Source: Escherichia phage Utah. Taken from it: a stretch of DNA of 59,024 nt. Made by a program: the position numbers and the translations under genes. Positions 902 to 53,111 of this stretch are shown here, in pieces (the stretch's first letter is position 1; the number at the start of each line of letters is the position of its first letter). The notes under the pieces were generated by a model. That model searched no databases. It saw only the letters and a list, made by a program, of their open reading frames with translations, and was not told the DNA's origin. The stretch lies in the sequence record KY014601.1; one strand, given 5' to 3'.

Positions 902-912
902 CAGACAAAAAC

Positions 913-937
913 AAGGCCGGATTTCCCGGCCTTTTTA
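913..937. terminator. Bidirectional rho-independent terminator between convergent genes
   Basis: GGCCGG(915-920)-ATTTC-CCGGCC(926-931) followed by TTTTT; reverse strand also has a T-run after the stem. Confidence 0.6.
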
Positions 938-941
938 TCGA

Positions 942-3527
942 CTAAACTTCGTCTTCATCGTCAAACGGGTCTGGCTTTTTGCCGACCAGTTTTTCGACTT
1001 CTGCGTCATGCCGTTTTAACGTAGTCTGCACCCATGACGAGTTAAGTTTCCCCGCGTCATCGAATGCCCCTTTGACCCGCTTACGGACATAAACGCGGCC
1101 AGATTCGCCGCCAAATTTGACCACGCCGCCCGGCTTGAAGCCCAATTCCATAAGCATGTTTTTCAGGCGGTTCGTCTTCGGCATTTCCACGTCTGTCATT
1201 TCGAGGAATGCGTTTTTCAGGGACGGCACGAAGATGACGTCGCGGTGTACGCCCGGCGTCGTTCCGTCACGAAGCATTTGTGCGATTGCGCCTTCCACGC
1301 CATCGTCAGACGCGTCGGCCATGACCGCGAATGCTTCGGTGTCCTGCGGTGCGTGTCCTTTGGCATCGAAATCCTTTCCGATCTCCCAATCGAGGAACCA
1401 CTTTTTGATAGCAGGTGCGTGGTTTTCGATTGCCCGGTACACGTTTTTGAAGAAGCGCGCGCGTTCAGTCTTCGACCCGTAAACCCGCTCCATGTCCAGA
1501 TGATTTTCTGCCTGCGTTGACACCACCAGATAACGACGCTGGTTTTCATCGAGTGGCAATGCGTTGAAGTGGTTGGTGAACATCATTTTGCTGCTGGTGT
1601 TCACTACTTCCTTCGGCTTGCGGCCCTTTGGCTCAATCTGGAAGCGGTCGTTTGTGATGAATTCCTTCTGGCGTTCCACCGCGCTGTACCTATCGCCTTT
1701 GTCGTAGATCTCTTCCACGATTTTCAGGATGTGGCCCTCGGCCCAATCGCTGAAACGGCCATTCATCACGGTGTTTGACACATAGCCCACGTTCGACGCG
1801 CCGAGCATCCGCGACATGATGATGCCGAGCGTCGTTTTACCAGAACCATGCGCACCACGGATCAGAAGCGAGTAGTTGATGCGTTTCGTTGGGTGCTGAA
1901 TAACCCACGCCATCCAGTCCAGAACATAGCGGCGTTCCTTCTCGTTCGGGAAAAGCACGATGAAGAAGTCTTTGATGATCTCCAGCGCCTTTTTGTCGTA
2001 CGGAGAAAGGTCAGTCGCGGCCTCCGGAATGGATTCAGGGTCAAAAGAGTTCAGCCACGTACGCCCACGGTCGTCAATAAAGAATTCCGGCCCGATCACC
2101 CCCTCTTTCGGCTTCCACACAGATTCCGGCATGTCACCGTGCATCGCCGGGTAGTACATCGCGTCCCAAACGATAGGAACCGGGCGGACTACCGACGCAT
2201 AGTGGACAGGCTTGAAGGCTTCTTCCTCAAACACGCATTTTTTCGCAAAAGCGACGTCGAAAGCGCCTTTTGTGATGTAATCGCCCGTGGTTTTTTCGAT
2301 AAAACTGTCATTTGCCTTCGAGAAAACGAAGTTTTTCAGCCACTGCGGAGTCTCTTTTGACCCGTAATCGAAGCCCAAAAGCTCCCTTTTGTCACCAGCA
2401 GTGAGGCGGAAGTTGTTGATCCTGCGGTATGCTTCGGCCGCAATCTGGACGATGGCCTTGCGGGTAAGCCCGAAAATCTGCGCTTTTTTGAATGATTCGG
2501 CCCACGCATTCCAGTCATTCGCCTCGGTACACTCGGCGAAAGCCTCGCGGTACTCGATGGCGCGTTCTTCCTGCTCGGCTTTCTCGATGTCCTGCACTTC
2601 TTTGATGATGGTGCCGAGCGTGATCAGTCGAGTCGAGTTGTGCGCGAAGCCCTTATCCCACTTGTATTCGAAATCACCTTCGTCGAAGTTGTGTGCCTGC
2701 ATGGCCCATTCGCGGGCAATGGCCTTCGCCTCGTCCTGATCGCGGCAGGAAATTTGCAGCGCGGCCAGTACGGTGATGTAGTTCTCGTAATCTTCCGGGT
2801 TCGGGTATTTCAGGACGATGTCGCGCAGTTCATCGTACGTGCCGTCCCACTTTTTGACGTCAGACAGCGCGGCCCAATCGTCATCGTCTGCCGAACCGAT
2901 AGACTCATAACCGTTCATTGGCCGTTTGACCATTGTCCAGCCCAAGTCCTTCGCGTATCGGTCGAATTCGGCGGCGATCTCGCGAGCGGTATCGAGGCTG
3001 ATCTCTTCGAGGTCAAGGTCGGCGGCGTTGTTCAGCGGATTCTCGCCATCAATCCAGTAATAGTCGCGCTTGGTGTCCGGGTGGATACCGTACGCAACGA
3101 ACTGCTGGCCGTCGGCGAGGATTTCAACTGCATGGCGCTGGCCGAAGTCGTCTTCCCACACGCCGGATTTCACTTTGGCGAACGGGTTTTCGGTTCGGTA
3201 CAGGTAGAGTTTCTTCGGCTCCCGGCCGATACGACATGGCGCTGCACCGACGTTCTCGGCGATCCAGTCTGCCATGTGCGCCACGGCGTCTTCATCGTAA
3301 ACGTCGATGTCAACCGCCGGGGTGTATTTGGTCAGAATCCCGATGCCGTTATTCGTATAGCGTTTCGCCCAACGCTGGATCTGCTCCTTATCATTGATTG
3401 TTCGTTCCCAATCTTCACCGATAGGGCGTTTGCCCGCACCCTTCTTATCGGCGTCCGGGGCGTAGATAGGTACGATGGTGTACCCATTCCCCCAAAGCGT
3501 TTCGCCGTACTCTTGCCAGTAGTTCAT
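942..3527 (-). CDS. Bifunctional primase-polymerase (PrimPol N-terminus) fused to D5/SF3-type helicase
   Basis: 861 aa; N-terminal PrimPol-like region (TIVPIYAPDADKKGAGKRPIG..., VDIDVYDED acidic motif); C-terminal Walker A GAHGSGKTT; acidic tail ...DDEDEV. Confidence 0.8.
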   Translation of the reverse strand: MNYWQEYGETLWGNGYTIVPIYAPDADKKGAGKRPIGEDWERTINDKEQIQRWAKRYTNNGIGILTKYTPAVDIDVYDEDAVAHMADWIAENVGAAPCRIGREPKKLYLYRTENPFAKVKSGVWEDDFGQRHAVEILADGQQFVAYGIHPDTKRDYYWIDGENPLNNAADLDLEEISLDTAREIAAEFDRYAKDLGWTMVKRPMNGYESIGSADDDDWAALSDVKKWDGTYDELRDIVLKYPNPEDYENYITVLAALQISCRDQDEAKAIAREWAMQAHNFDEGDFEYKWDKGFAHNSTRLITLGTIIKEVQDIEKAEQEERAIEYREAFAECTEANDWNAWAESFKKAQIFGLTRKAIVQIAAEAYRRINNFRLTAGDKRELLGFDYGSKETPQWLKNFVFSKANDSFIEKTTGDYITKGAFDVAFAKKCVFEEEAFKPVHYASVVRPVPIVWDAMYYPAMHGDMPESVWKPKEGVIGPEFFIDDRGRTWLNSFDPESIPEAATDLSPYDKKALEIIKDFFIVLFPNEKERRYVLDWMAWVIQHPTKRINYSLLIRGAHGSGKTTLGIIMSRMLGASNVGYVSNTVMNGRFSDWAEGHILKIVEEIYDKGDRYSAVERQKEFITNDRFQIEPKGRKPKEVVNTSSKMMFTNHFNALPLDENQRRYLVVSTQAENHLDMERVYGSKTERARFFKNVYRAIENHAPAIKKWFLDWEIGKDFDAKGHAPQDTEAFAVMADASDDGVEGAIAQMLRDGTTPGVHRDVIFVPSLKNAFLEMTDVEMPKTNRLKNMLMELGFKPGGVVKFGGESGRVYVRKRVKGAFDDAGKLNSSWVQTTLKRHDAEVEKLVGKKPDPFDDEDEV

Positions 3528-3805
3528 TCAAGGATTTCCCCTGTTTCGCTGTCCGTTTTGATCCATGAAGGGTTAGTCAGCCAATGCGGACGGATGCCGC
3601 AGTGAGGGACAGCTTTGCAAACTTTTTCGGCCACGCTGCTCGTTACGTTGTTCTGCACGGCCCATAACAATGTCGGGTAACTGATCTTCGCTGCCTTCGC
3701 CAGTTCGGCCATTCTGGCGTTCGGGTCTACCTCCAAAGCCGCTTGCATCATGAGAAATTTGACCCGCATCCGGTCGTCGTTTAAAGCCCAATCTGGAAAT
3801 CGCAT
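3524..3805 (-). CDS. Small putative DNA-binding protein (HTH-like), first gene of leftward primase operon
   Basis: 93 aa; segment MAELAKAAKISYPTLLWAVQNN resembles an HTH; 4-bp overlap with primase-helicase start; promoter immediately upstream. Confidence 0.4.
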   Translation of the reverse strand: MRFPDWALNDDRMRVKFLMMQAALEVDPNARMAELAKAAKISYPTLLWAVQNNVTSSVAEKVCKAVPHCGIRPHWLTNPSWIKTDSETGEILE

Positions 3806-4464: not shown

Positions 4465-4525
4465 TCTTTCGCCCCGCATCGGCTCCCTTCGGGGGGCCGT
4501 TTTTCACACCAACGGAGAGGCAATT

Positions 4526-21141: not shown

Positions 21142-21160
21142 TACATGCCAAACTGATAAA

Positions 21161-21184
21161 GCGCCTTCGGGCGCTTTTCTTTTA
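21161..21184 (+). terminator. Rho-independent terminator after major tail gene
   Basis: GCGCC-TTCG-GGCGC then TTTTCTTTT. Confidence 0.7.
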
Positions 21185-38125: not shown

Positions 38126-40321
38126 GTGGCGGATGAAGACGTAGGTATCAGCGCGGCCAAACTGGTCGGCGAAGCCTTGCAGTGGAATGGCGCGAAGCCC
38201 AAACTCACATACCTGTCCCGGTGTGTGGGCGAAGCGTTAGCCATTTCCGCATTGAACATCGACGCGGCGAAAAACTTCGGGGAGGTTTTGCAGTGGGACG
38301 GTAAATTGCCGTCCATCTTCCGCGCGGCCGAGTTGGTCGGCGAAGTGCTGGCGATTCAGAAGATGGAGATCCGCGCGTCAACGATGGTCTGTGAAGCACT
38401 GGTCAAAGAGCCGCAATTTATGGCGGCCGAAATGATCTGCGAGGCTATCGGTCAGGCGGCCACGGAACGGCCACCGCTTTACGCAGATGCGGTTTATCAG
38501 TACGTCACGCAGCACGATGTCGTACCGCCGTTGTCGGATGTCATTTCGCCGGAAAGTCTGTACACGTTGTGGAATTACGCCATTGTCCAGCGGCCGATCG
38601 ATGCCCCGATTTCCTACAACATCGTGAAGCAGGCGGTGACGCTGTCCGTTCTGGCGTCGCCTATCGTGACTATTTCGTACGACAAGGTGAAGACCGCGTG
38701 GTCGTATGCCGTGGTGTCCGCGACGCTCGGTGACTTCCCGCTGCCGGATGAAATGTGGTCGAAGATCAGCACGAAACAGGCGTGGAATCTGGTATTGCAG
38801 TCGATCGACATCCCGTACGTCCCGACGTCTGGTGTGTTCGTTCGCCATGAATCGACGCTGGTGGTTCAGGCCCATCCGCTGCCGATGTACACGACGCCTG
38901 CGTCCGTGAAGTCGAACGTGGTTCTGGCCGCGCAGAAGCGCCCGGTTGAACGACTCCCGCGCTCAAGGACTCGCGTGGCGCAGGCATTATCGCAGGCCGT
39001 TACCGCGTTGCCGATCCCGATGCCCCGGTCAAACGTGTTCGCCGCGCAGACGCTGTCACAGGCGGTCATCCCGGCGGACTTCGTTGACCCGACTGTCGGT
39101 GTCGAGCACGCGGCCGCAGTGACGTCGTATGCTGTTTGCGAGTATCAGGTGTCGCTTCCTATCAGTTACACGCGCGCGAAGACCCTGACGCCGCTGGTGC
39201 TGCAATTTAGCGATAACCAACGAACCATCCCGCTGTCCACGATGCGCACCAAACACGTTTCGTCTCAGTTCTTGGTCAAGTCTGACTTGCGCCCGGTGCT
39301 GTCTCGGATGCGCACCAAACACGTTTCGTCTCAGTTCTTGGTCAAGTCTGACTTGCGCCCGGTGCTGTCTCGGACGCGCGTTAAACAGGTACGCGGCTAT
39401 GCGGTGCGGGCGGAAGAGTACACGCCTCCGATTAACCTGCTGGTATGGTCGCGCGCTGACGCTGTTCGCATGTCGGTGGTGCAGCAGGCAACGGACTACC
39501 CTGACCCGGGAATACCTACAACGTCGGCCATCGTTAGTGCGGCCACGGCGTACCACGTCATGAAAGCGCTGGACTACGAAGACCCGAACGATATGTGGGA
39601 GGCGAGCAAGGTTCAGACCGTGCCGCAGTTATTAGAGAAGGTGGTGAAAGCCCAACCGCTCCGGCTCCCGATCTCGTACGCTCCGCTGGCGCAATTTGTT
39701 GAACTGGTGACGCGGTACCAATACATGCCGCCTCCGGGTGAAGTTGCCGAGTCCGGTATCCATGTTCGTCAGGTAATGCAGCCAGTGGCGTTCCGCGCGA
39801 CGTACCCTGACCCGACTGTCCCGGTATCCTACCTGACGGTCAATCAGGTACTGGAGCACATCGCGACCCCGGCCGACTACCCGGACGCCCACCTGCCGAC
39901 GTCGGACGCGATTGTAAATCAGGTATTGGAACACGTTGCGCAGATTGACGATTTCCCTGATCCCGGTACCATGTTCCGGCCGCTTATTGTCAGCCAGATC
40001 ATTCAGCAGGCGGCACAGGATGCGTCTTACCCGGATTGGAGCACACTGCATAAACCGCTTGCGGTTCAGCAGGTAATTCAGCATGTATCAATGACGGCGG
40101 AATACCCTGACAAGGACGTCCCGCAATCATTTGCAAAGGTGTCTCAAGTTTTGCAGCACTATGCCGATAAAGCTAATTACCCAGACAAAGATGCTCCCCA
40201 ATCCACGCTACGAGTCCGTCAGGTACTTGAGCAGGTAATGATGCGCGACAAGTCGATGTACGAAATGCCGCAGCCACCACGGAAACATCGGGTGCAAATC
40301 ACTTGCCGCTTTGTGTACTGA
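38126..40321 (+). CDS. Highly repetitive protein (N-terminal VGEALQW repeats, tandem 22-aa duplication, C-terminal YPD repeats); possible fibre
   Basis: 731 aa; GTG start after AAGGGGG RBS; repeats LVGEALQWNG / FGEVLQWDG / LVGEVLAI; six or more YPDx units with VNQVLEH / VSQVLQH. Confidence 0.5.
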   Translation: MADEDVGISAAKLVGEALQWNGAKPKLTYLSRCVGEALAISALNIDAAKNFGEVLQWDGKLPSIFRAAELVGEVLAIQKMEIRASTMVCEALVKEPQFMAAEMICEAIGQAATERPPLYADAVYQYVTQHDVVPPLSDVISPESLYTLWNYAIVQRPIDAPISYNIVKQAVTLSVLASPIVTISYDKVKTAWSYAVVSATLGDFPLPDEMWSKISTKQAWNLVLQSIDIPYVPTSGVFVRHESTLVVQAHPLPMYTTPASVKSNVVLAAQKRPVERLPRSRTRVAQALSQAVTALPIPMPRSNVFAAQTLSQAVIPADFVDPTVGVEHAAAVTSYAVCEYQVSLPISYTRAKTLTPLVLQFSDNQRTIPLSTMRTKHVSSQFLVKSDLRPVLSRMRTKHVSSQFLVKSDLRPVLSRTRVKQVRGYAVRAEEYTPPINLLVWSRADAVRMSVVQQATDYPDPGIPTTSAIVSAATAYHVMKALDYEDPNDMWEASKVQTVPQLLEKVVKAQPLRLPISYAPLAQFVELVTRYQYMPPPGEVAESGIHVRQVMQPVAFRATYPDPTVPVSYLTVNQVLEHIATPADYPDAHLPTSDAIVNQVLEHVAQIDDFPDPGTMFRPLIVSQIIQQAAQDASYPDWSTLHKPLAVQQVIQHVSMTAEYPDKDVPQSFAKVSQVLQHYADKANYPDKDAPQSTLRVRQVLEQVMMRDKSMYEMPQPPRKHRVQITCRFVY
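39241..39372 (+). repeat. Perfect 66-bp tandem duplication inside the repeat-protein gene
   Basis: 39241-39306 is identical to 39307-39372 (GATGCGCACCAAACACGTTTCG...GTGCTGTCTCG), encoding MRTKHVSSQFLVKSDLRPVLSR twice. Confidence 0.9.
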
Positions 40322-40339
40322 CAATTGACGGGTTAATAT
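40311..40339 (+). promoter_or_regulatory. Candidate promoter for lysis cassette (TTGTGT-17-TAATAT) directly abutting a terminator hairpin
   Basis: TTGTGT 40311-40316, TAATAT 40334-40339; predicted start would fall inside the 5' arm of the 40344-40370 hairpin. Confidence 0.35.
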
Positions 40340-40343
40340 TCTT

Positions 40344-40370
40344 AGCGGGCTTGTCCCGCTAATTTTTTTT
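40344..40370 (+). terminator. Rho-independent terminator after repeat-protein gene
   Basis: AGCGGG-CTTGT-CCCGCT followed by TTTTTTTT (40363-40370). Confidence 0.7.
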
Positions 40371-40385
40371 GTGAGGAAGCACCCA

Positions 40386-40724
40386 ATGAGCGAAATGGAA
40401 CGGGAACGGCCGGGGGATACCTCCGGCGGCATCAAGTTAGACTTGTCTGTCAATCTCCCCACGATTCTGACGATGGCTTCGATGCTGGTGGCGGCGGTAC
40501 TGTACGTCAATAACCGCTTCGCCGACCTATCAAATCAGAACACGCAGACGGACACCCGGCTTACCAACGTAGAGAAACGTCAGGACTCCACTGAAGCGGC
40601 GTTCACGGTTCTCCGGGCCGAAACCGTCTCGCAAAACTCCGCCCTTCGATCAGACCTTCGCGCCGACATGCGCGACCTGAAACAAAGCGTGGATACCCTA
40701 TCTTCCCAAATGATGAGGAAATAA
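40386..40724 (+). CDS. Putative holin-like membrane protein with C-terminal coiled-coil
   Basis: 112 aa from ATG 40386 (RBS GAGGAAG); single TM-like segment LPTILTMASMLVAAVLYV; directly upstream of lysin-like gene. Confidence 0.4.
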   Translation: MSEMERERPGDTSGGIKLDLSVNLPTILTMASMLVAAVLYVNNRFADLSNQNTQTDTRLTNVEKRQDSTEAAFTVLRAETVSQNSALRSDLRADMRDLKQSVDTLSSQMMRK

Positions 40725-40727
40725 CCG

Positions 40728-41441
40728 ATGGCTAAACAGAAGCCGCGCGGGATTCGCAATAACAACCCGGGCAACATCGAGTGGGGGTCGCCGTGGCAAG
40801 GGCTGATCCCGCGTAACGAGGCGACGGACAGCCGCTTCGCGCAGTTCAAAGACCCGGCATCCGGCATCCGCGCCATTGCTGTCACCCTGACCACCTACTA
40901 CGACAAGCGCAAGGCCAACGACGGCAGCAAAATCGACTCGGTTCGCGAAGTGATCGAGCGGTGGGCACCCGCCGTTGAGAACAACGTATCTGCATACGCT
41001 AAACAGGTGGCCGCCGTTCTGGCCGTTGACCCGAATAGCGAAACGCTGAATCTCCACGACTACGACACCATGCGCGGTCTGGTGGAAGGCATCATCCGCC
41101 ACGAAAACGGGAACCCGGAAGCGTTCGGCCTGACGCCGTACAGCAACGCGAATATGTGGTACTCGGACGAAGTGATCGAGGAGGGTCTGCGCCGGGCGGG
41201 CATCGTTAAGGCGGCCAAGCCTGTTAACCGTACCACCGTGGCCGCGACAAGCGTGGCAGGACTCGGCGCGGCGCAACTGGTTGACATGGTACAGCCCGTC
41301 AAGGCTGCGATGGACAGCGCCCACGGTGATATTTCTTCCGGTGATTGGGTACGCATCGCATTCGGCGCGGCCACAATCGCGATTGGCCTGTACATGGGAT
41401 GGGTCGCGTACCGGAAGCATCGGGCCGGGGCCGCTGCATGA
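40728..41441 (+). CDS. Putative peptidoglycan hydrolase (endolysin-like) with C-terminal transmembrane segment
   Basis: 237 aa; N-terminal GIRNNNPGNIEW motif that I recall from phage muramidase-type proteins (family uncertain); C-terminal hydrophobic WVRIAFGAATIAIGLYMGWVAY; followed by spanins. Confidence 0.45.
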   Translation: MAKQKPRGIRNNNPGNIEWGSPWQGLIPRNEATDSRFAQFKDPASGIRAIAVTLTTYYDKRKANDGSKIDSVREVIERWAPAVENNVSAYAKQVAAVLAVDPNSETLNLHDYDTMRGLVEGIIRHENGNPEAFGLTPYSNANMWYSDEVIEEGLRRAGIVKAAKPVNRTTVAATSVAGLGAAQLVDMVQPVKAAMDSAHGDISSGDWVRIAFGAATIAIGLYMGWVAYRKHRAGAAA

Positions 41442-41692
41442 CGGGGCTACTCGCCCGGATTAAGACGGGCGTCCTTGCGGCGCTCGTTTTCGTTGTGGCC
41501 CTCTTCGGCGTCTGGCGGGCAGGACGCGCGAAGGGCAAACAGGATCAGATTAATAACCAGAACTACGACACGTTGCGGGAACAGGCAAACGCGGATAAAA
41601 ATGTGGCCGAGGTGCATAATGAAATCAATAAACTCCCTGATGGTGGCGCTAACGATCTGCTTCGCCGTAAGTGGATGCGTCGAAAGGATTAA
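41438..41692 (+). CDS. Inner-membrane spanin (Rz-like)
   Basis: 84 aa from ATG 41438 (ATGA overlap with previous stop); N-terminal TM GVLAALVFVVALFGVW, then charged coiled-coil region. Confidence 0.5.
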   Translation: MTGLLARIKTGVLAALVFVVALFGVWRAGRAKGKQDQINNQNYDTLREQANADKNVAEVHNEINKLPDGGANDLLRRKWMRRKD

Positions 41693-41822
41693 CCCTGCGC
41701 CGTCTTTCTGTTCTGTCGCGCGCGCCATCTACATCGGCGAGGAAGACGTGCTGACAGATGAAACCGCACGGCAGATCGCCACCCACGATGAAATCGGCGA
41801 ACGGCTATGCGGCTGGAAATAG
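41619..41822 (+). CDS. Outer-membrane lipoprotein spanin (Rz1-like), overlapping i-spanin in another frame
   Basis: 67 aa from ATG 41619; signal peptide with lipobox LTICFAVSGC. Confidence 0.5.
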   Translation: MKSINSLMVALTICFAVSGCVERINPAPSFCSVARAIYIGEEDVLTDETARQIATHDEIGERLCGWK

Positions 41823-42284
41823 TTAAATGGTCGGGTGGGTAATAATCACAGTACGTTCACCCTCGATTGTCTGGTGGTACCGCAGTGAGGACACCAGATG
41901 ATCGAGGTTATTGAAGACCGGGATATTCAGCCGCTTCGCCTCTTCCACCTCAGCGCGGGTACCGGAACTGCGCATCGCATCTTCGCCAATCAGCAGAACC
42001 GCGTCACAACGGCGCATCAATTCCATCGTGCATTCCAGCCAATATTCGTCCGGTATCTCGCCCTCTGTCTTGTGCTCGAAGTGGGCCGTGTTCAGGTGCG
42101 GAGTAACCGGGAACATCTTGTGGACGTAAAGTTGATCGACAACCGACACGGCCGTCTCTTCGGCTTTCAGGATGTTGACCGTCGTCGGAACGGTGCAGCC
42201 CGAACCGATGATGTACGGGCGGTACGGCCCGGCCAGATAGATCATGACGGGCTTGGCCGCCGGGTTACACATATTCACGTTCAT
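41823..42284 (-). CDS. Nucleoside 2'-deoxyribosyltransferase / DNPH1-like protein
   Basis: 153 aa; VMIYLAGPY N-terminal motif and LLIGEDAMRSSGTRAEVEEA resembling the catalytic-Glu region of deoxyribosyltransferase-fold enzymes. Confidence 0.5.
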   Translation of the reverse strand: MNVNMCNPAAKPVMIYLAGPYRPYIIGSGCTVPTTVNILKAEETAVSVVDQLYVHKMFPVTPHLNTAHFEHKTEGEIPDEYWLECTMELMRRCDAVLLIGEDAMRSSGTRAEVEEAKRLNIPVFNNLDHLVSSLRYHQTIEGERTVIITHPTI

Positions 42285-42565
42285 ATTAAGCCTCGGTTAT
42301 ATTCGTCCACGTATTTTTCATTTTCAGGAGATCGGTCTACCTGATTAATCTCGCTGAACTCGCAGGAAATAATATCCCCACTAGGCAGGCGCACCCGCCA
42401 AAAAACATCCTCTTCACGCGGCCCGGTGCGTTCCCATTCGAGCACGGTTCCGTAGTATTTATGCCCGTTGAATCGGTCAGTGAAATGCACGGAGTCGCCT
42501 TTAATCGGCCAGCCCGGTTTTATCTTGGCACGGTATTTCCGTTTTATAGCCTCAACGTCGATCAT
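42281..42565 (-). CDS. Hypothetical protein
   Basis: 94 aa; operon context, 4-nt overlap with downstream gene. Confidence 0.45.
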   Translation of the reverse strand: MIDVEAIKRKYRAKIKPGWPIKGDSVHFTDRFNGHKYYGTVLEWERTGPREEDVFWRVRLPSGDIISCEFSEINQVDRSPENEKYVDEYNRGLI

Positions 42566-42640
42566 ACTTCATCCTCCTCAAAGTCTTCGTCAAAAAGGTC
42601 GGACTGGCCGCCGGAAAAGCTGACGACAAGCGGCGCTTTG

Positions 42641-43354
42641 TTAGTTGGCATCGGTTGAGTCCTCGCATAATGGTATGAAGTCCTTCGGGCCGTCGCCTGA
42701 ACCGGGGAAGCGCCGGAAGACCATTTCGTCTTCAATGGTCAGTTTATCCTTGCTGTTCCCGCGACGATAGAAGTCGGCCATGCCGCTCCCGTACGAACGG
42801 TCAATCCCGGCACCGTACGGATCTTGCGGGCAAAGTTCCAGCGCCAGCACTTCTCGCCAGTCAGGACGATCGATGCGGCTGACGATGCGATGGTTATTCG
42901 ACACCCGGCAGTACCCCGAGGCTATCAGCGTTTCCGCCAGCCGGGCCTGTTCCTTGCCGCGCATCGTTTTCGCGCGCTTGACATCCTCTTTCCTTGCCCG
43001 GGCGAAATACTCCCGCGAGAAGCGGCTACCGACGTTCTCCGCGAAGATGCGCTGGTCTTTGATGACCATGCCCCATTTCCGTCGGCTACCTTCTTCCACG
43101 TAGCGAATGGCCCCGGCGTAGCGCAGCAGCATGGCATCGGTCAGGCGGGCATTCTTCGGGTCTTTGGCTTTCCACCAGCCGTACACCTCCACCATGCGGG
43201 CCATCGCCTTGTCGCAGTACCACAACTCGGCGTGGCTGGTGGGCGAGTATGTTGGGTAAGACTTTGCGCCGCCGTCAAACGCCCGGTAGCAGTACCAGAC
43301 CCCGCCGCTGTACTGGAAGTGCGGTATCTTGTGATGCTCTTTCATCGTAGCCAT
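42641..43354 (-). CDS. Hypothetical protein
   Basis: 237 aa; Trp/Tyr-rich N-region; no motif recognised. Confidence 0.5.
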   Translation of the reverse strand: MATMKEHHKIPHFQYSGGVWYCYRAFDGGAKSYPTYSPTSHAELWYCDKAMARMVEVYGWWKAKDPKNARLTDAMLLRYAGAIRYVEEGSRRKWGMVIKDQRIFAENVGSRFSREYFARARKEDVKRAKTMRGKEQARLAETLIASGYCRVSNNHRIVSRIDRPDWREVLALELCPQDPYGAGIDRSYGSGMADFYRRGNSKDKLTIEDEMVFRRFPGSGDGPKDFIPLCEDSTDAN

Positions 43355-43355
43355 G

Positions 43356-43808
43356 TCAGTCCTCGGCCAGTTCAGGATTAATGGTAAACCGCAGCCCGTA
43401 CTTAAAATCGTTTACGGACAGCAGATGGATGATGTCGTCCGAGTTTTCTATCTTGATTCCCTTCGCGGCCAGCGCATCCCTCGGCGAAAGCCACGGATCG
43501 ATAGTTAACTGGCGGTATACCGGATCCATGTGTATCGGCGAGCCTTCGCGCACGATGAACGGCAGCGGGTACGGACGGCCAGACCGGGCGTGGATACGGC
43601 GTGGCCCGGGCGAACGGGTAATACCGTAGAACGATGCCATAACGTCGGGCAGCCCTTTCCCGTACATCGAGCGTACGACTTCTTCGTCGCCGCGCAGGAG
43701 CCGCTTAACGATATGCCGGACAAACGGGTACAGATCCCACTTCGCGCGTTGGCGGATGACCGAAGCCTGTCGGCGGGCCTCCTGCTGGAATAATGATCCG
43801 CGTTTCAT
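43356..43808 (-). CDS. Hypothetical protein
   Basis: 150 aa; tightly packed in leftward operon. Confidence 0.5.
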   Translation of the reverse strand: MKRGSLFQQEARRQASVIRQRAKWDLYPFVRHIVKRLLRGDEEVVRSMYGKGLPDVMASFYGITRSPGPRRIHARSGRPYPLPFIVREGSPIHMDPVYRQLTIDPWLSPRDALAAKGIKIENSDDIIHLLSVNDFKYGLRFTINPELAED

Positions 43809-44152
43809 TTTTTATATTTATCCTCTTCGTTGAAATTACGGACAGGCACGCCGTCCCAAATGCGTACGATGCCCGGGTGCGCCTCGCGCCACGATCCGAG
43901 CAGGTGGTCAGCCCACTCCTTCAAGTCTTCGCTGTATGCGGCCAGAAGTCGGTCTTCAATGGACTGGCGTTCCGCTGCGGACATCGGCCCGACCTGATGG
44001 ATGATGTCAAACCAGATCTCGTCGTGGACACCGTTGACGGCCACCAGATAGCCTTTTGCTTCCAGATCTGCGATGACGGCGTGGGTGCGGTCGGCTTTCA
44101 TGCGCATGTAGTTCATGCGGCGGCCCTCCCCCATAAGATTTGCAATGTGCAT
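43805..44152 (-). CDS. Hypothetical protein
   Basis: 115 aa; start uncertain (internal Met at 44116 would give a 2-nt overlap instead of 40 nt). Confidence 0.45.
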   Translation of the reverse strand: MHIANLMGEGRRMNYMRMKADRTHAVIADLEAKGYLVAVNGVHDEIWFDIIHQVGPMSAAERQSIEDRLLAAYSEDLKEWADHLLGSWREAHPGIVRIWDGVPVRNFNEEDKYKK

Positions 44153-44394
44153 GGCGGCTCGTCAGGATCGGAATAGATTTCGAACCCGGCGTCCTTTATC
44201 CAGCCGATCAGCATGGCGCGGGATTTATCGGACAGCGGGTGGTCGTTGTGTAACAGCGCGACCGTAGTGGTTGTCAGCCCGGCCGATGCGGCCCGGCGGA
44301 TAAGATGCTCCACCTCGCCACGCACTTCAATCGCTTCGGCAGTGTGGTGGTCAGTTGCGGCTTGATACATTTCTTCGGCGGTGATAGTCAGCAT
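44113..44394 (-). CDS. Hypothetical protein, first gene of leftward unit 4
   Basis: 93 aa; ATG 44394 preceded by GGGGG RBS and promoter at 44438-44467. Confidence 0.5.
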   Translation of the reverse strand: MLTITAEEMYQAATDHHTAEAIEVRGEVEHLIRRAASAGLTTTTVALLHNDHPLSDKSRAMLIGWIKDAGFEIYSDPDEPPCTLQILWGRAAA

Positions 44395-44415
44395 GTTGCC
44401 CCCTAAAGTAAAAAT

Positions 44416-44435
44416 CCCCGTTGTTGCCTTCGGGG
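44416..44435 (-). terminator. Terminator-like hairpin overlapping the start region of promoter 44438-44467
   Basis: Minus strand: CCCCG-AAGGCAACAA-CGGGG followed by AUUUU; lies between -10 and RBS. Confidence 0.45.
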
Positions 44436-44437
44436 AT

Positions 44438-44467
44438 AATATAGGTTATACACGCGACGTATGTCAA
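44438..44467 (-). promoter_or_regulatory. Leftward promoter with conserved spacer element (TTGACA-TACGTCGCGTGTATAAC-CTATAT)
   Basis: Minus strand -35 TTGACA (44462-44467); spacer contains ACGTCGCGTGTA core shared with promoters at 46494, 49756, 53083. Confidence 0.6.
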
Positions 44468-44474
44468 ACGGTTT

Positions 44475-44987
44475 CTAAGACTTTCTTTTCCGGGCGTGCT
44501 CCAGTCGATCACCGTGGCCCTTCTCGACCATGAAATCGCGGGTCTGTTTGTGCAGGTTGGCGATCGTTTCCTTCGTTTTCCACCAGCGCGCCACTATCCC
44601 TTCGCGCACTTCCCGTTCGCGGAACAGGACGGCCAAGTCATTCGCGGTGATGTCATACCCTTCGCACGCGGCCAAAACTCCGGCCTTGAATTCGTAGAAC
44701 AGGCTTTGGATCTCCCGGAATTCGGCCTCGGTTACGATCTCGATATTGACCGTTTTCCCTTCACCGATGTCGTCCTCGGTAAACAGGCACCCGGCTTCGC
44801 CAATGGCGCGGCCATCGTCCTTCCGGTAGCGCGTATTCCCTACGATGATCTGCGTCGGCGTGGTGCGCTCTACGCGTCGTTTCACGGCGAAGGTTACTTC
44901 CGGGCTGTACCCGATACGGATGCTGTTACGCTCCAGTGTCATGTCGCCAGTTTCGAGGTGTCCGAATCTCAATTTTTTATCGGCCAT
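44475..44987 (-). CDS. Hypothetical protein
   Basis: 170 aa; last gene of leftward unit 3. Confidence 0.5.
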   Translation of the reverse strand: MADKKLRFGHLETGDMTLERNSIRIGYSPEVTFAVKRRVERTTPTQIIVGNTRYRKDDGRAIGEAGCLFTEDDIGEGKTVNIEIVTEAEFREIQSLFYEFKAGVLAACEGYDITANDLAVLFREREVREGIVARWWKTKETIANLHKQTRDFMVEKGHGDRLEHARKRKS

Positions 44988-45223
44988 TCTGCGTATTCTC
45001 CCTTCGGTAATTCGTCAGTCACGTCGCGCTCGGCCCATTTCAGGAACGCTTCGCGGGTACAACTCGGGTAGTGTCGGCCGAAGCCTACGACCGGGCCGTC
45101 GTACTGGATGTGCGTGGCCCCGATGTACAGGATAGTGCGGTCGTTCACCAGTCCGTTTCGGTTCTGCGGCCGTTTACCGCGATAGGTGCGGCCGACTTTA
45201 AGTTTTAACTCTTCATCGGCCAT
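44969..45223 (-). CDS. Hypothetical protein
   Basis: 84 aa; overlapping neighbours. Confidence 0.45.
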   Translation of the reverse strand: MADEELKLKVGRTYRGKRPQNRNGLVNDRTILYIGATHIQYDGPVVGFGRHYPSCTREAFLKWAERDVTDELPKGEYAEWPIKN

Positions 45224-53082: not shown

Positions 53083-53111
53083 ACAATAGTTCTACACGCG
53101 ACGTATGTCAA
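53083..53111 (-). promoter_or_regulatory. Leftward early promoter (TTGACA-17-TATTGT) with conserved spacer element
   Basis: -35 TTGACA 53106-53111, spacer TACGTCGCGTGTAGAAC, -10 TATTGT 53083-53088. Confidence 0.55.

Follow-up and report, generated by a model that had tools for sequence, protein, structure and literature searches.

The lysis cassette of Chivirus phages (holin, endolysin, i-spanin and o-spanin) is joined tail to tail, with a spacer of 0 nt, to the last gene of a cluster read in the leftward direction, and this zero-spacer junction is genus-wide. Judged from the spacer series in related phages (+95, +23, 0, −7 and −56 nt), the junction arose by genome compaction. Around it we propose, tentatively and with somewhat less than even confidence, a model in which the lysis genes would be expressed by read-through past an upstream terminator, the lysis RNA would acquire a Rho-type 3′ end embedded antisense in the convergent gene, and an overlap of the leftward RNA with the lysis genes would follow as a by-product of the compaction.

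Results

Genome context of the junction

The window analysed here is the whole stretch of 59,024 nucleotides. A 2-kb query around the junction was 100% identical to MK249308 (Salmonella phage TS13) and about 100 Chi-like phage records matched it at 90–99%; on these sequence matches, the phage group is the genus Chivirus of the family Casjensviridae. The relatives compared below are GenBank phage records, and a search of IMG/VR for relatives returned four loci. The Chi genome paper describes a gene order with replication genes on the left, followed by the terminase and virion genes, the lysis genes and, on the right, 34 mostly unknown genes, and the gene layout in the window matches it. The coding strands in the window form four blocks (Table 1), and the genome has only two convergent junctions, 901/942 and 41822/41823. 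A covariance-model scan of positions 39500–45000 against Rfam gave no match at E values up to 1, and a literature search for a transcriptome of Chi, Chivirus or a Chi-like phage found none.

Table 1 Features of the window, and spacer lengths of the homologous junction in related phages (negative values are overlaps)
Feature	Position or spacer	Strand or direction	Remarks
Block 1	54077 across the cos site to 901	rightward	
Block 2	3805 to 942	leftward	Primase
Block 3	4048 to 41822	rightward	Exonuclease, SSB, DNA polymerase, helicase, terminase, virion genes, lysis genes
Block 4	53040 to 41823	leftward	
Bidirectional intrinsic terminator	903..943	both strands	AAAAACAAGGCCGG-ATTTC-CCGGCCTTTTTAT; fills the 40-nt spacer of the other convergent junction
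Strong intrinsic terminator (T8 terminator)	40342..40372	+	TTAGCGGG-CTTGT-CCCGCTAA, then T8; 8-bp GC-rich stem; in the gap between the tail-fibre and holin genes
Holin gene	40386..40724	+	First gene of the lysis cassette; ORF and Siskin annotation
Endolysin gene	40728..41441	+	
i-spanin gene	41438..41692	+	Overlaps the start of the o-spanin gene; ORF and Siskin annotation
o-spanin gene	41619..41822	+	67 aa, lipobox FAVSGC; last gene of the lysis cassette; translation MKSINSLMVALTICFAVSGC...; O-spanin in the Siskin annotation
Tail-to-tail junction TAG/TTA	41820..41825		Spacer 0 nt; o-spanin stop and complement of the TAA stop of the dRT-like gene
DUF7768 / nucleoside 2-deoxyribosyltransferase-like (dRT-like) gene	41823..42284	−	153 aa; last gene of the leftward cluster
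Imperfect weak hairpin, then UUUCAUCU	41762..41814	−	Just past the dRT-like stop in the leftward RNA
16-bp uninterrupted stem-loop, 15-nt loop	41861..41907	+ (rightward RNA)	Antisense within the dRT-like gene; candidate 3′-end, pause or protective hairpin
C-rich, G-poor tract	41943..42060	+ (rightward RNA)	Candidate Rho-utilisation region
Sigma-70-like promoter TTGACA-18-TATATT	44438..44467	−	11/12 matches; exact pattern also in Siskin and 118970_sal1
Junction in Lavrentievavirus PM87, E21	+95 nt		PM87 spacer: GC hairpin flanked on either side by T-rich tails; E21: equal spacing
Junction in Yonseivirus S9a, Salado	+23 nt		Spacer wholly a bidirectional terminator, AAAAAGCCCGG-N4-CCGGGCTTAxTTTTT, that extends into both stop codons
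Junction in Chivirus (TS13 and relatives)	0 nt		Without intrinsic terminator
Junction in Zhonglingvirus XAP3	−7 nt		Overlap
Junction in Sashavirus Sasha (outside Casjensviridae)	−21 nt		Overlap; partner of the o-spanin gene is a different gene, not dRT-like
Junction in Redjacvirus Stilesk	−56 nt		Overlap

A convergent junction without a spacer

The TAG stop codon of the o-spanin gene (41820–41822) is followed directly, from 41823, by the TTA that is the complement of the stop codon of the leftward gene, leaving a gap of 0 nt, as the initial annotation had reported. The product of the leftward gene matched DUF7768 in Pfam with an E value of 6.7e-8, above the curated cutoff, and gave weak matches to DUF4406 and Nuc_deoxyrib_tr, the latter below its cutoff; in relatives the gene is annotated as nucleoside 2-deoxyribosyltransferase. 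Both genes abut identically in the curated annotation of phage Siskin, and the hexamer TAGTTA is invariant in 13 of the 13 aligned Chivirus genomes. With a 181-nt query spanning the junction, at least 80% of the query was covered in 97 of the 100 matching phage records. Among the 60 matches listed there was no inserted spacer; the sole length change was a 1-nt insertion in a record marked UNVERIFIED, and the other departures from 181 nt were matches starting 2, 40 or 95 nt into the query. An apparent homology breakpoint exactly at the junction in STM1_BHU was rejected, since this record consists of concatenated coding sequences.

Pattern scans and a relaxed hairpin-plus-U search revealed no canonical intrinsic terminator within several hundred nucleotides of the junction on either strand, and a bidirectional intrinsic terminator in the junction spacer (a hairpin with an A-run on one side and a T-run on the other) is absent, the spacer being 0 nt. 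The earlier statement that the junction has no terminator is thus accurate for intrinsic terminators only, on both strands and over several hundred nucleotides. The accompanying statement that no hairpin intervenes holds trivially, there being no spacer for one to occupy, but it passes over a 16-bp hairpin that starts 39 nt downstream in the rightward RNA (41861–41907).

The sequence leading into the junction is uniform: the segment 41603–41827, which holds the o-spanin gene, is nucleotide-identical between clades that diverge by 10–18% next door, and the o-spanin gene has only 2 variable columns in 204 nt (9 genomes). A second, similar identity block lies at 40171–40367.

The homologous junction in related phages

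Across the relatives, the spacing of the homologous junction ranges from an ample spacer to a long overlap (Table 1). As read from these sequences, spacer loss is recurrent in the phage group, and the solutions differ. The hairpins embedded at the Zhonglingvirus XAP3 junction are strong, with z −4.18 for the early-side RNA and z −1.89 for the lysis RNA. In Redjacvirus, the lysis RNA has no unusual hairpin (z +0.35), and the early-side RNA gave z −1.86; since the lysis-side hairpin is missing there, an embedded hairpin is not a general solution. Terminators are present at 903–943 in the window and at the Yonseivirus and Lavrentievavirus junctions, indicating that the absence of one at the Chivirus lysis junction is a derived state rather than an inability to build one.

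A 16-bp hairpin antisense to the dRT-like gene

The rightward RNA past the o-spanin stop can form a hairpin that spans 39–85 nt from the junction and falls within the last 29 codons of the dRT-like gene, the stop counted. Its stem consists of 7 G-C, 7 A-U and 2 G-U pairs. The 45-nt window that contains it has a folding energy of −24.3 kcal/mol on the + strand versus −18.9 kcal/mol on the − strand; the hairpin is about 5 kcal/mol weaker in the leftward RNA because the G-U pairs become A-C mismatches. This 45-nt window belongs to the most stable 0.07% of the genome's windows, and about nine 45-nt windows on the + strand, which are more GC-rich, are equally stable. A custom stem scan that admitted Watson-Crick and G-U pairs and loops of 3–20 nt identified it as the longest uninterrupted stem on either strand of the 59-kb genome; an inverted-repeat finder had missed it because the G-U pairs interrupt exact seeds. 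In shuffled sequences about 0.85 stems of at least 15 bp are expected per strand, and a given 100-nt window would hold one with a probability of about 0.002, a post hoc estimate. Over the 108 nt of rightward RNA that follow the o-spanin stop, the fold gave z −2.38 against shuffles, 3 of 200 of which were as stable.

We then compared the hairpin across 13 Chivirus genomes, in which 98.2% of the pair cells hold standard pairs. In the clade of BP12C, 37, SP124, YP10S2 and SP019, the pair 41867/41901 has changed from U-A to C-G, with no intermediates, and at the protein level this corresponds to an Ile-to-Val substitution together with a synonymous change of an Asp codon. This compensatory event is the only one, and the loop-closing pair is lost in the same clade. 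The loop is hypervariable (8 of its 15 columns vary). In the stem arms 3 of 30 columns vary, against 17.5% over the whole gene, so that extra conservation of the arms is not significant. Among synonymous recodings of the dRT-like peptide NLDHLVSSLRYHQTIEG sampled with the codon usage of the phage itself, only 0.4% were as stable as the native hairpin (z −3.3).

The hairpin shares with intrinsic terminators a stable stem-loop (16 bp, −24.3 kcal/mol), but it has neither the short loop of about 3–8 nt nor the GC-rich stem, and the terminator scan did not report it. In addition, the tail 3′ of the stem is not conserved, being UUAUUGAA (UUAUUG) in TS13, CUAUUG in Chi and UCAUUG in the BP12C clade. 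A canonical intrinsic terminator is accordingly ruled out by the 15-nt loop and the weak, non-conserved U-tract. Nor does the hairpin lie between the two convergent genes, as the element of a collision-driven terminator would; it sits inside the dRT-like coding sequence.

A C-rich, G-poor tract downstream of the hairpin

The C-rich tract that follows has its peak at 41973–42050, starting 66 nt after the stem, with 28 C and 13 G (C/G 2.15); a C/G ratio of at least 1.8 occurs in 1.4% of the + strand windows. The corresponding ratio is 1.76 in Chi and weaker, 1.56, in phage 37, and a stretch with more C than G is found at this site in all relatives. An open reading frame antisense to the dRT-like gene (41898..42344, +) was weighed as a possible further gene at the end of the rightward operon and rejected: in Siskin, Chi, SP030 and phage 35 it is broken by stop codons. 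The RNA of the tract is therefore presumably untranslated. Positions 41973–42050 thus provide what a Rho-dependent end calls for, a C-rich, G-poor region just downstream in untranslated RNA, a composition that may reflect the dRT-like codons; the tract may be a passive by-product of their richness in G.

Transcription toward the junction from both sides

On the rightward side, the initial annotation had assumed a single late operon of about 38 kb. Strong intrinsic terminators at 4480–4499, 21158–21177 and 40342–40372 punctuate the block, so it is not uninterrupted, and the block starts with the replication genes for exonuclease, SSB, DNA polymerase and helicase and is therefore not purely late. 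Replication or nucleotide-metabolism genes are found on both strands, and the labels early and late are assumptions. The T8 terminator at 40342–40372 is also annotated in Siskin, and the Chivirus clades do not differ in its hairpin. It is one-directional, with no T-run on the leftward strand, and its end lies 13 nt short of the holin start, beside the holin ribosome-binding site. A promoter for the lysis cassette between the T8 terminator and the holin gene was considered and rejected: the interval contains none and is too short for one. We infer that the lysis genes are expressed by read-through past the T8 terminator, which, barring antitermination of late transcription, would also weaken the rightward flux arriving at the junction.

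On the leftward side, sigma-70-like promoters with a perfect or near-perfect −35 element lie in the gaps of the block at 53111, 49784, 46522 and 44467, and the leftward cluster appears to be driven by a promoter of the sigma-70 type. By its position, the promoter at 44467 would drive the last leftward unit, consisting of six genes from 44394 down to 41823. The 108 nt of leftward RNA after the dRT-like stop are no more stable than shuffled sequences (z −0.14), and the weak hairpin at 41762–41814, with a synonymous-recoding z of −1.9, does not stand out from the background. No convincing leftward terminator was found further into the lysis cassette; moderate windows with more C than G are present in the leftward RNA at 41622–41465 and 41222–41145.

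Since the junction has no factor-independent terminator, some transcript overlap is likely, and the expectation in the initial annotation that the two transcripts run into each other survives in this reduced form, mostly for the leftward RNA; the rightward RNA, however, meets the T8 terminator and then the conserved hairpin and the C-rich tract. Leftward read-through into the spanin genes would be the likelier of the two overlaps, because the leftward RNA has no comparable terminator element past the dRT-like stop.

Proposed model and alternative explanations

In the model that we favour, the strong terminator at 40342–40372 would reduce rightward transcription, and the lysis genes would be expressed only by the polymerases that read through it. 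The 3′ end of the lysis RNA would be set by a module of the Rho-dependent type lying antisense in the dRT-like gene, in which the 16-bp hairpin at 41861–41907, devoid of a U-tract, would shield the 3′ end or make the polymerase pause, and the untranslated C-rich, G-poor tract at 41943–42060 would load Rho. The leftward RNA, in turn, would extend tens to hundreds of nucleotides antisense into the spanin genes until it is stopped by Rho or by polymerase collision, and the resulting sense/antisense overlap, as the sequence suggests, probably exists as a by-product of compaction. Counting against the model are the single compensatory event in the hairpin, the stem arms without significant extra conservation, the other 45-nt windows of equal stability, the possible codon origin of the C-rich tract and the missing lysis-side hairpin in Redjacvirus. 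Moreover, if late transcription is antiterminated, as by lambda Q, it would ignore both the T8 terminator and Rho.

The initial annotation had instead proposed that both polymerase streams run freely and that late rightward antisense RNA silences the leftward early genes as a timing device. The lack of an intrinsic terminator at or near the junction agrees with such a device, and the strong internal rightward terminators could imply an antitermination that also ignores Rho, but the T8 terminator stands upstream of the lysis cassette, the conserved hairpin and the C-rich tract come right past the o-spanin stop, the rightward block is not purely late, and silencing early genes late in infection would bring little obvious benefit; we regard this timing device as very unlikely. 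Antisense regulation, if it occurs, could at least as plausibly act the other way: early leftward RNA from the promoter at 44467 would cover the spanin, endolysin and holin mRNAs and delay lysis until late transcription wins. The 11/12 sigma-70-like match 2.6 kb upstream, the leftward RNA past the dRT-like stop, which shows no unusual structure and no convincing terminator further left, and the missing T-run of the 40342 hairpin on the leftward strand are all in keeping with this possibility, as is the identity of 41603–41827 between clades, which is expected under a second constraint at the RNA level. The identity block could, however, be the trace of a recombination sweep, given the similar block at 40171–40367, and the windows with more C than G at 41622–41465 and 41222–41145 would let Rho stop an untranslated antisense RNA; a delay of lysis by leftward RNA is in our view unlikely. 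The two directions might also be combined, early leftward RNA pairing with the invariant spanin segment and the lysis mRNA, and later rightward RNA, from read-through or antitermination, passing the hairpin, which would set the amount that passes, and shutting the leftward cluster; such a two-way device is hardly probable.

Two further explanations dispense with antisense regulation. Head-on collisions could end both units if the 41861–41907 hairpin pauses both streams. This would suit a convergent pair that lacks an intrinsic terminator and a hairpin that can fold in either RNA (−24.3 kcal/mol rightward, −18.9 kcal/mol leftward), and Wang, Ju and Liu showed that fixing the collision site requires a hairpin element without terminator features. 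The element here is part of the dRT-like coding sequence, however, and leftward ends at it would give non-stop dRT-like mRNAs. Both units would also have to be active simultaneously, and the G-U asymmetry favours a role in the rightward RNA only; we consider bidirectional termination by collision improbable. A small but appreciable probability goes to compaction alone, with the hairpin incidental or serving the dRT-like mRNA or protein or the DNA, and with Rho, or RNase III acting on double-stranded RNA, ending both transcripts diffusely. The single covariation event, the lack of significant extra conservation in the stem arms, the roughly one stem of at least 15 bp per strand expected by chance in 59 kb, and the overlapping genes of Redjacvirus and Sashavirus, which have no equivalent lysis-side hairpin, speak for this explanation. 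Against it, the genome's longest stem would fall by chance within 100 nt past this stop, and in the correct orientation, with a probability of about 0.002 (calculated post hoc), the codon choice favours the stem in that only 0.4% of recodings are as stable, and the stem is kept while the loop is hypervariable.

Discussion

The zero-gap arrangement is an ordinary consequence of a compact genome. Convergent genes that abut or overlap are well documented already, as is antisense read-through, and the junction opens no major unsolved question. What is modestly new is a candidate: a putative Rho-type 3′-end module written antisense into a coding gene. Cis-antisense temporal control has been described in phages, as in the "anti-late" RNA of T4, oop and PaQ of lambda, sar of P22 and the convergent pR/pL of coliphage 186, and in these examples antisense RNA or interference has been demonstrated. 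The Chivirus junction is like them in having opposed units and a potential read-through antisense to another temporal class, predicted here from the sequence.

The closest parallel to the favoured model is provided by E. coli, in which Rho-dependent 3′ ends lie just after stable stem-loops without a U-tract, with rut sites immediately downstream, and the stem-loop shields the RNA from 3′ exonucleases (Dar and Sorek 2018, PMC6061677). The phage element resembles these ends in its stem-loop without a conserved U-tract, in the C-rich, G-poor tract downstream and in the untranslated RNA past the stop; unlike them, this putative Rho-dependent module is placed as a whole antisense in a convergent protein-coding gene. 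Overlapping bidirectional terminators with collision-driven termination have been described for convergent pairs of E. coli (Ju et al. 2019, as cited in Wang et al. 2022, bioRxiv 10.1101/2022.10.23.513370). They share with the Chivirus junction a convergent pair, a hairpin element that is not of the intrinsic type and possible head-on encounters of polymerases; their element is placed between the genes, whereas here it lies 39–85 nt inside one of them.

The bidirectional terminators at 903–943 and in Yonseivirus S9a and Salado also mark a boundary between the lysis or rightward unit and the leftward cluster, as does the junction studied here, but the Chivirus junction lacks a spacer, runs of A or T, and a GC-rich hairpin with a short loop. 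In Pseudomonas phages analysed by ONT-cappable-seq (PMC10914365), 28% of the termination sites lie in the downstream neighbouring gene and 9% antisense to genes, and bidirectional termination regions between convergent genes as well as phage antisense RNAs were reported; those sites were mapped experimentally, whereas the Chivirus element is predicted.

If the hairpin and the C-rich tract end the lysis transcript, the junction would be a clean natural example of a 3′-end module on the antisense strand of a coding gene, and it could be compared directly with the sister genera in which this junction still has a classical bidirectional terminator. It would then also be of use for phage annotation, because terminator finders skip coding regions, and would help the engineering of Chi-like therapeutic phages and the understanding of lysis-gene dosage.

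Predicted transcription signals on either side of the spanin/dRT-like junction

In front of the last leftward unit, a promoter-like site with an 18-nt spacer is followed directly by a hairpin. The predicted transcription start of this site (~44431) coincides with the end of the hairpin 5′ arm, and the terminator is therefore predicted to form only in RNA reading through from upstream. Transcripts starting at the site itself would escape termination. This arrangement is a predicted terminator-promoter overlap that would insulate the last leftward unit.

On the opposite strand, the codons that specify the transmembrane segment of the i-spanin contain a terminator-like hairpin. It probably arises incidentally from Val and Phe codons, but it could attenuate spanin expression.

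Features located in the window and at related loci
Feature	Sequence	Position	Strand	Composition
Promoter-like site and hairpin	Window	44404-44467	-	TTGACA-18-TATATT, then directly ATCCCCG-N10-CGGGGAT, then TTTTTACTTT
Terminator-like hairpin	Window	41464-41497	+	GACGGGCGTC-CTTGC-GGCGCTCGTT, then TTCGTTG
Identical o-spanin segment	Window	41603-41827
Identical tail-fibre 3′ end and T8 terminator	Window	40171-40367
Mosaic genes upstream of dRT-like gene	Window	42285-42640, 43356-43808
Region of the dRT-like and NinC/PAPS-reductase-like genes	Window	41823-43354
Minimal bidirectional terminator	Klebsiella phage Salado (locus L009)	3566-3588		Whole 23-nt spacer
Minimal bidirectional terminator	Klebsiella phage S9a (locus L013)	3444-3466		Whole 23-nt spacer
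o-spanin without annotation	Providencia phage Stilesk (locus L019)	1937-2137	-	Lipobox LSLSGC
o-spanin/dRT-like overlap	Stilesk (L019)	1937-1992		56 nt, tail-to-tail

Homologous junctions in relatives

In Salado and S9a, the spacer terminator overlaps the stop codons of both genes, and the two terminators have unlike loops (GCTA vs GAAA) and unlike A/T runs. The o-spanin and the annotated dRT-like gene of Stilesk overlap tail-to-tail, and the corresponding pair in Xanthomonas phage XAP3 (L012), where the o-spanin also lacks an annotation, overlaps by 7 nt. The record of Salmonella phage STM1 BHU (OL699877, L014), described as a 'partial genome', appears to consist of coding sequences joined through gaps of a constant 100 nt. 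Its product names seem mistaken (the dRT-like gene, for example, is called 'tail tip protein'), and the record is unsuitable for synteny comparisons.

Conservation and mosaicism around the junction

Chivirus clades whose adjoining genes differ by 10-18% have the o-spanin segment in common at 100% identity, and 130 nt of it lie outside the dual-coding overlap with the i-spanin. Among nine genomes compared, the o-spanin has only two variable columns in its 204 nt, both singletons. Identity is likewise universal in another block, which spans the tail-fibre 3′ end and the T8 terminator. These blocks may reflect a recombination sweep, a linker sequence or a further constraint at the RNA level.

Chivirus genomes show mosaicism in the genes immediately upstream of the dRT-like gene: indels there are large, and 31-38% of columns vary. 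In phage ST-118, the 3′ end of the dRT-like gene is recombinant and mixes the two clade haplotypes.

The neighbours of the DUF7768/dRT-like gene were compared between the window and loci L006, L007 and L012. A NinC/PAPS-reductase-like gene lies close to it: the two adjoin directly in phage 37 and FSL SP-124, and in TS13 a single small gene lies between them. DNA methyltransferase genes occur near the dRT-like gene in phage 37, as they do in two distant phages, XAP3 and Sasha. These neighbours hint at a nucleotide- or DNA-modification module.
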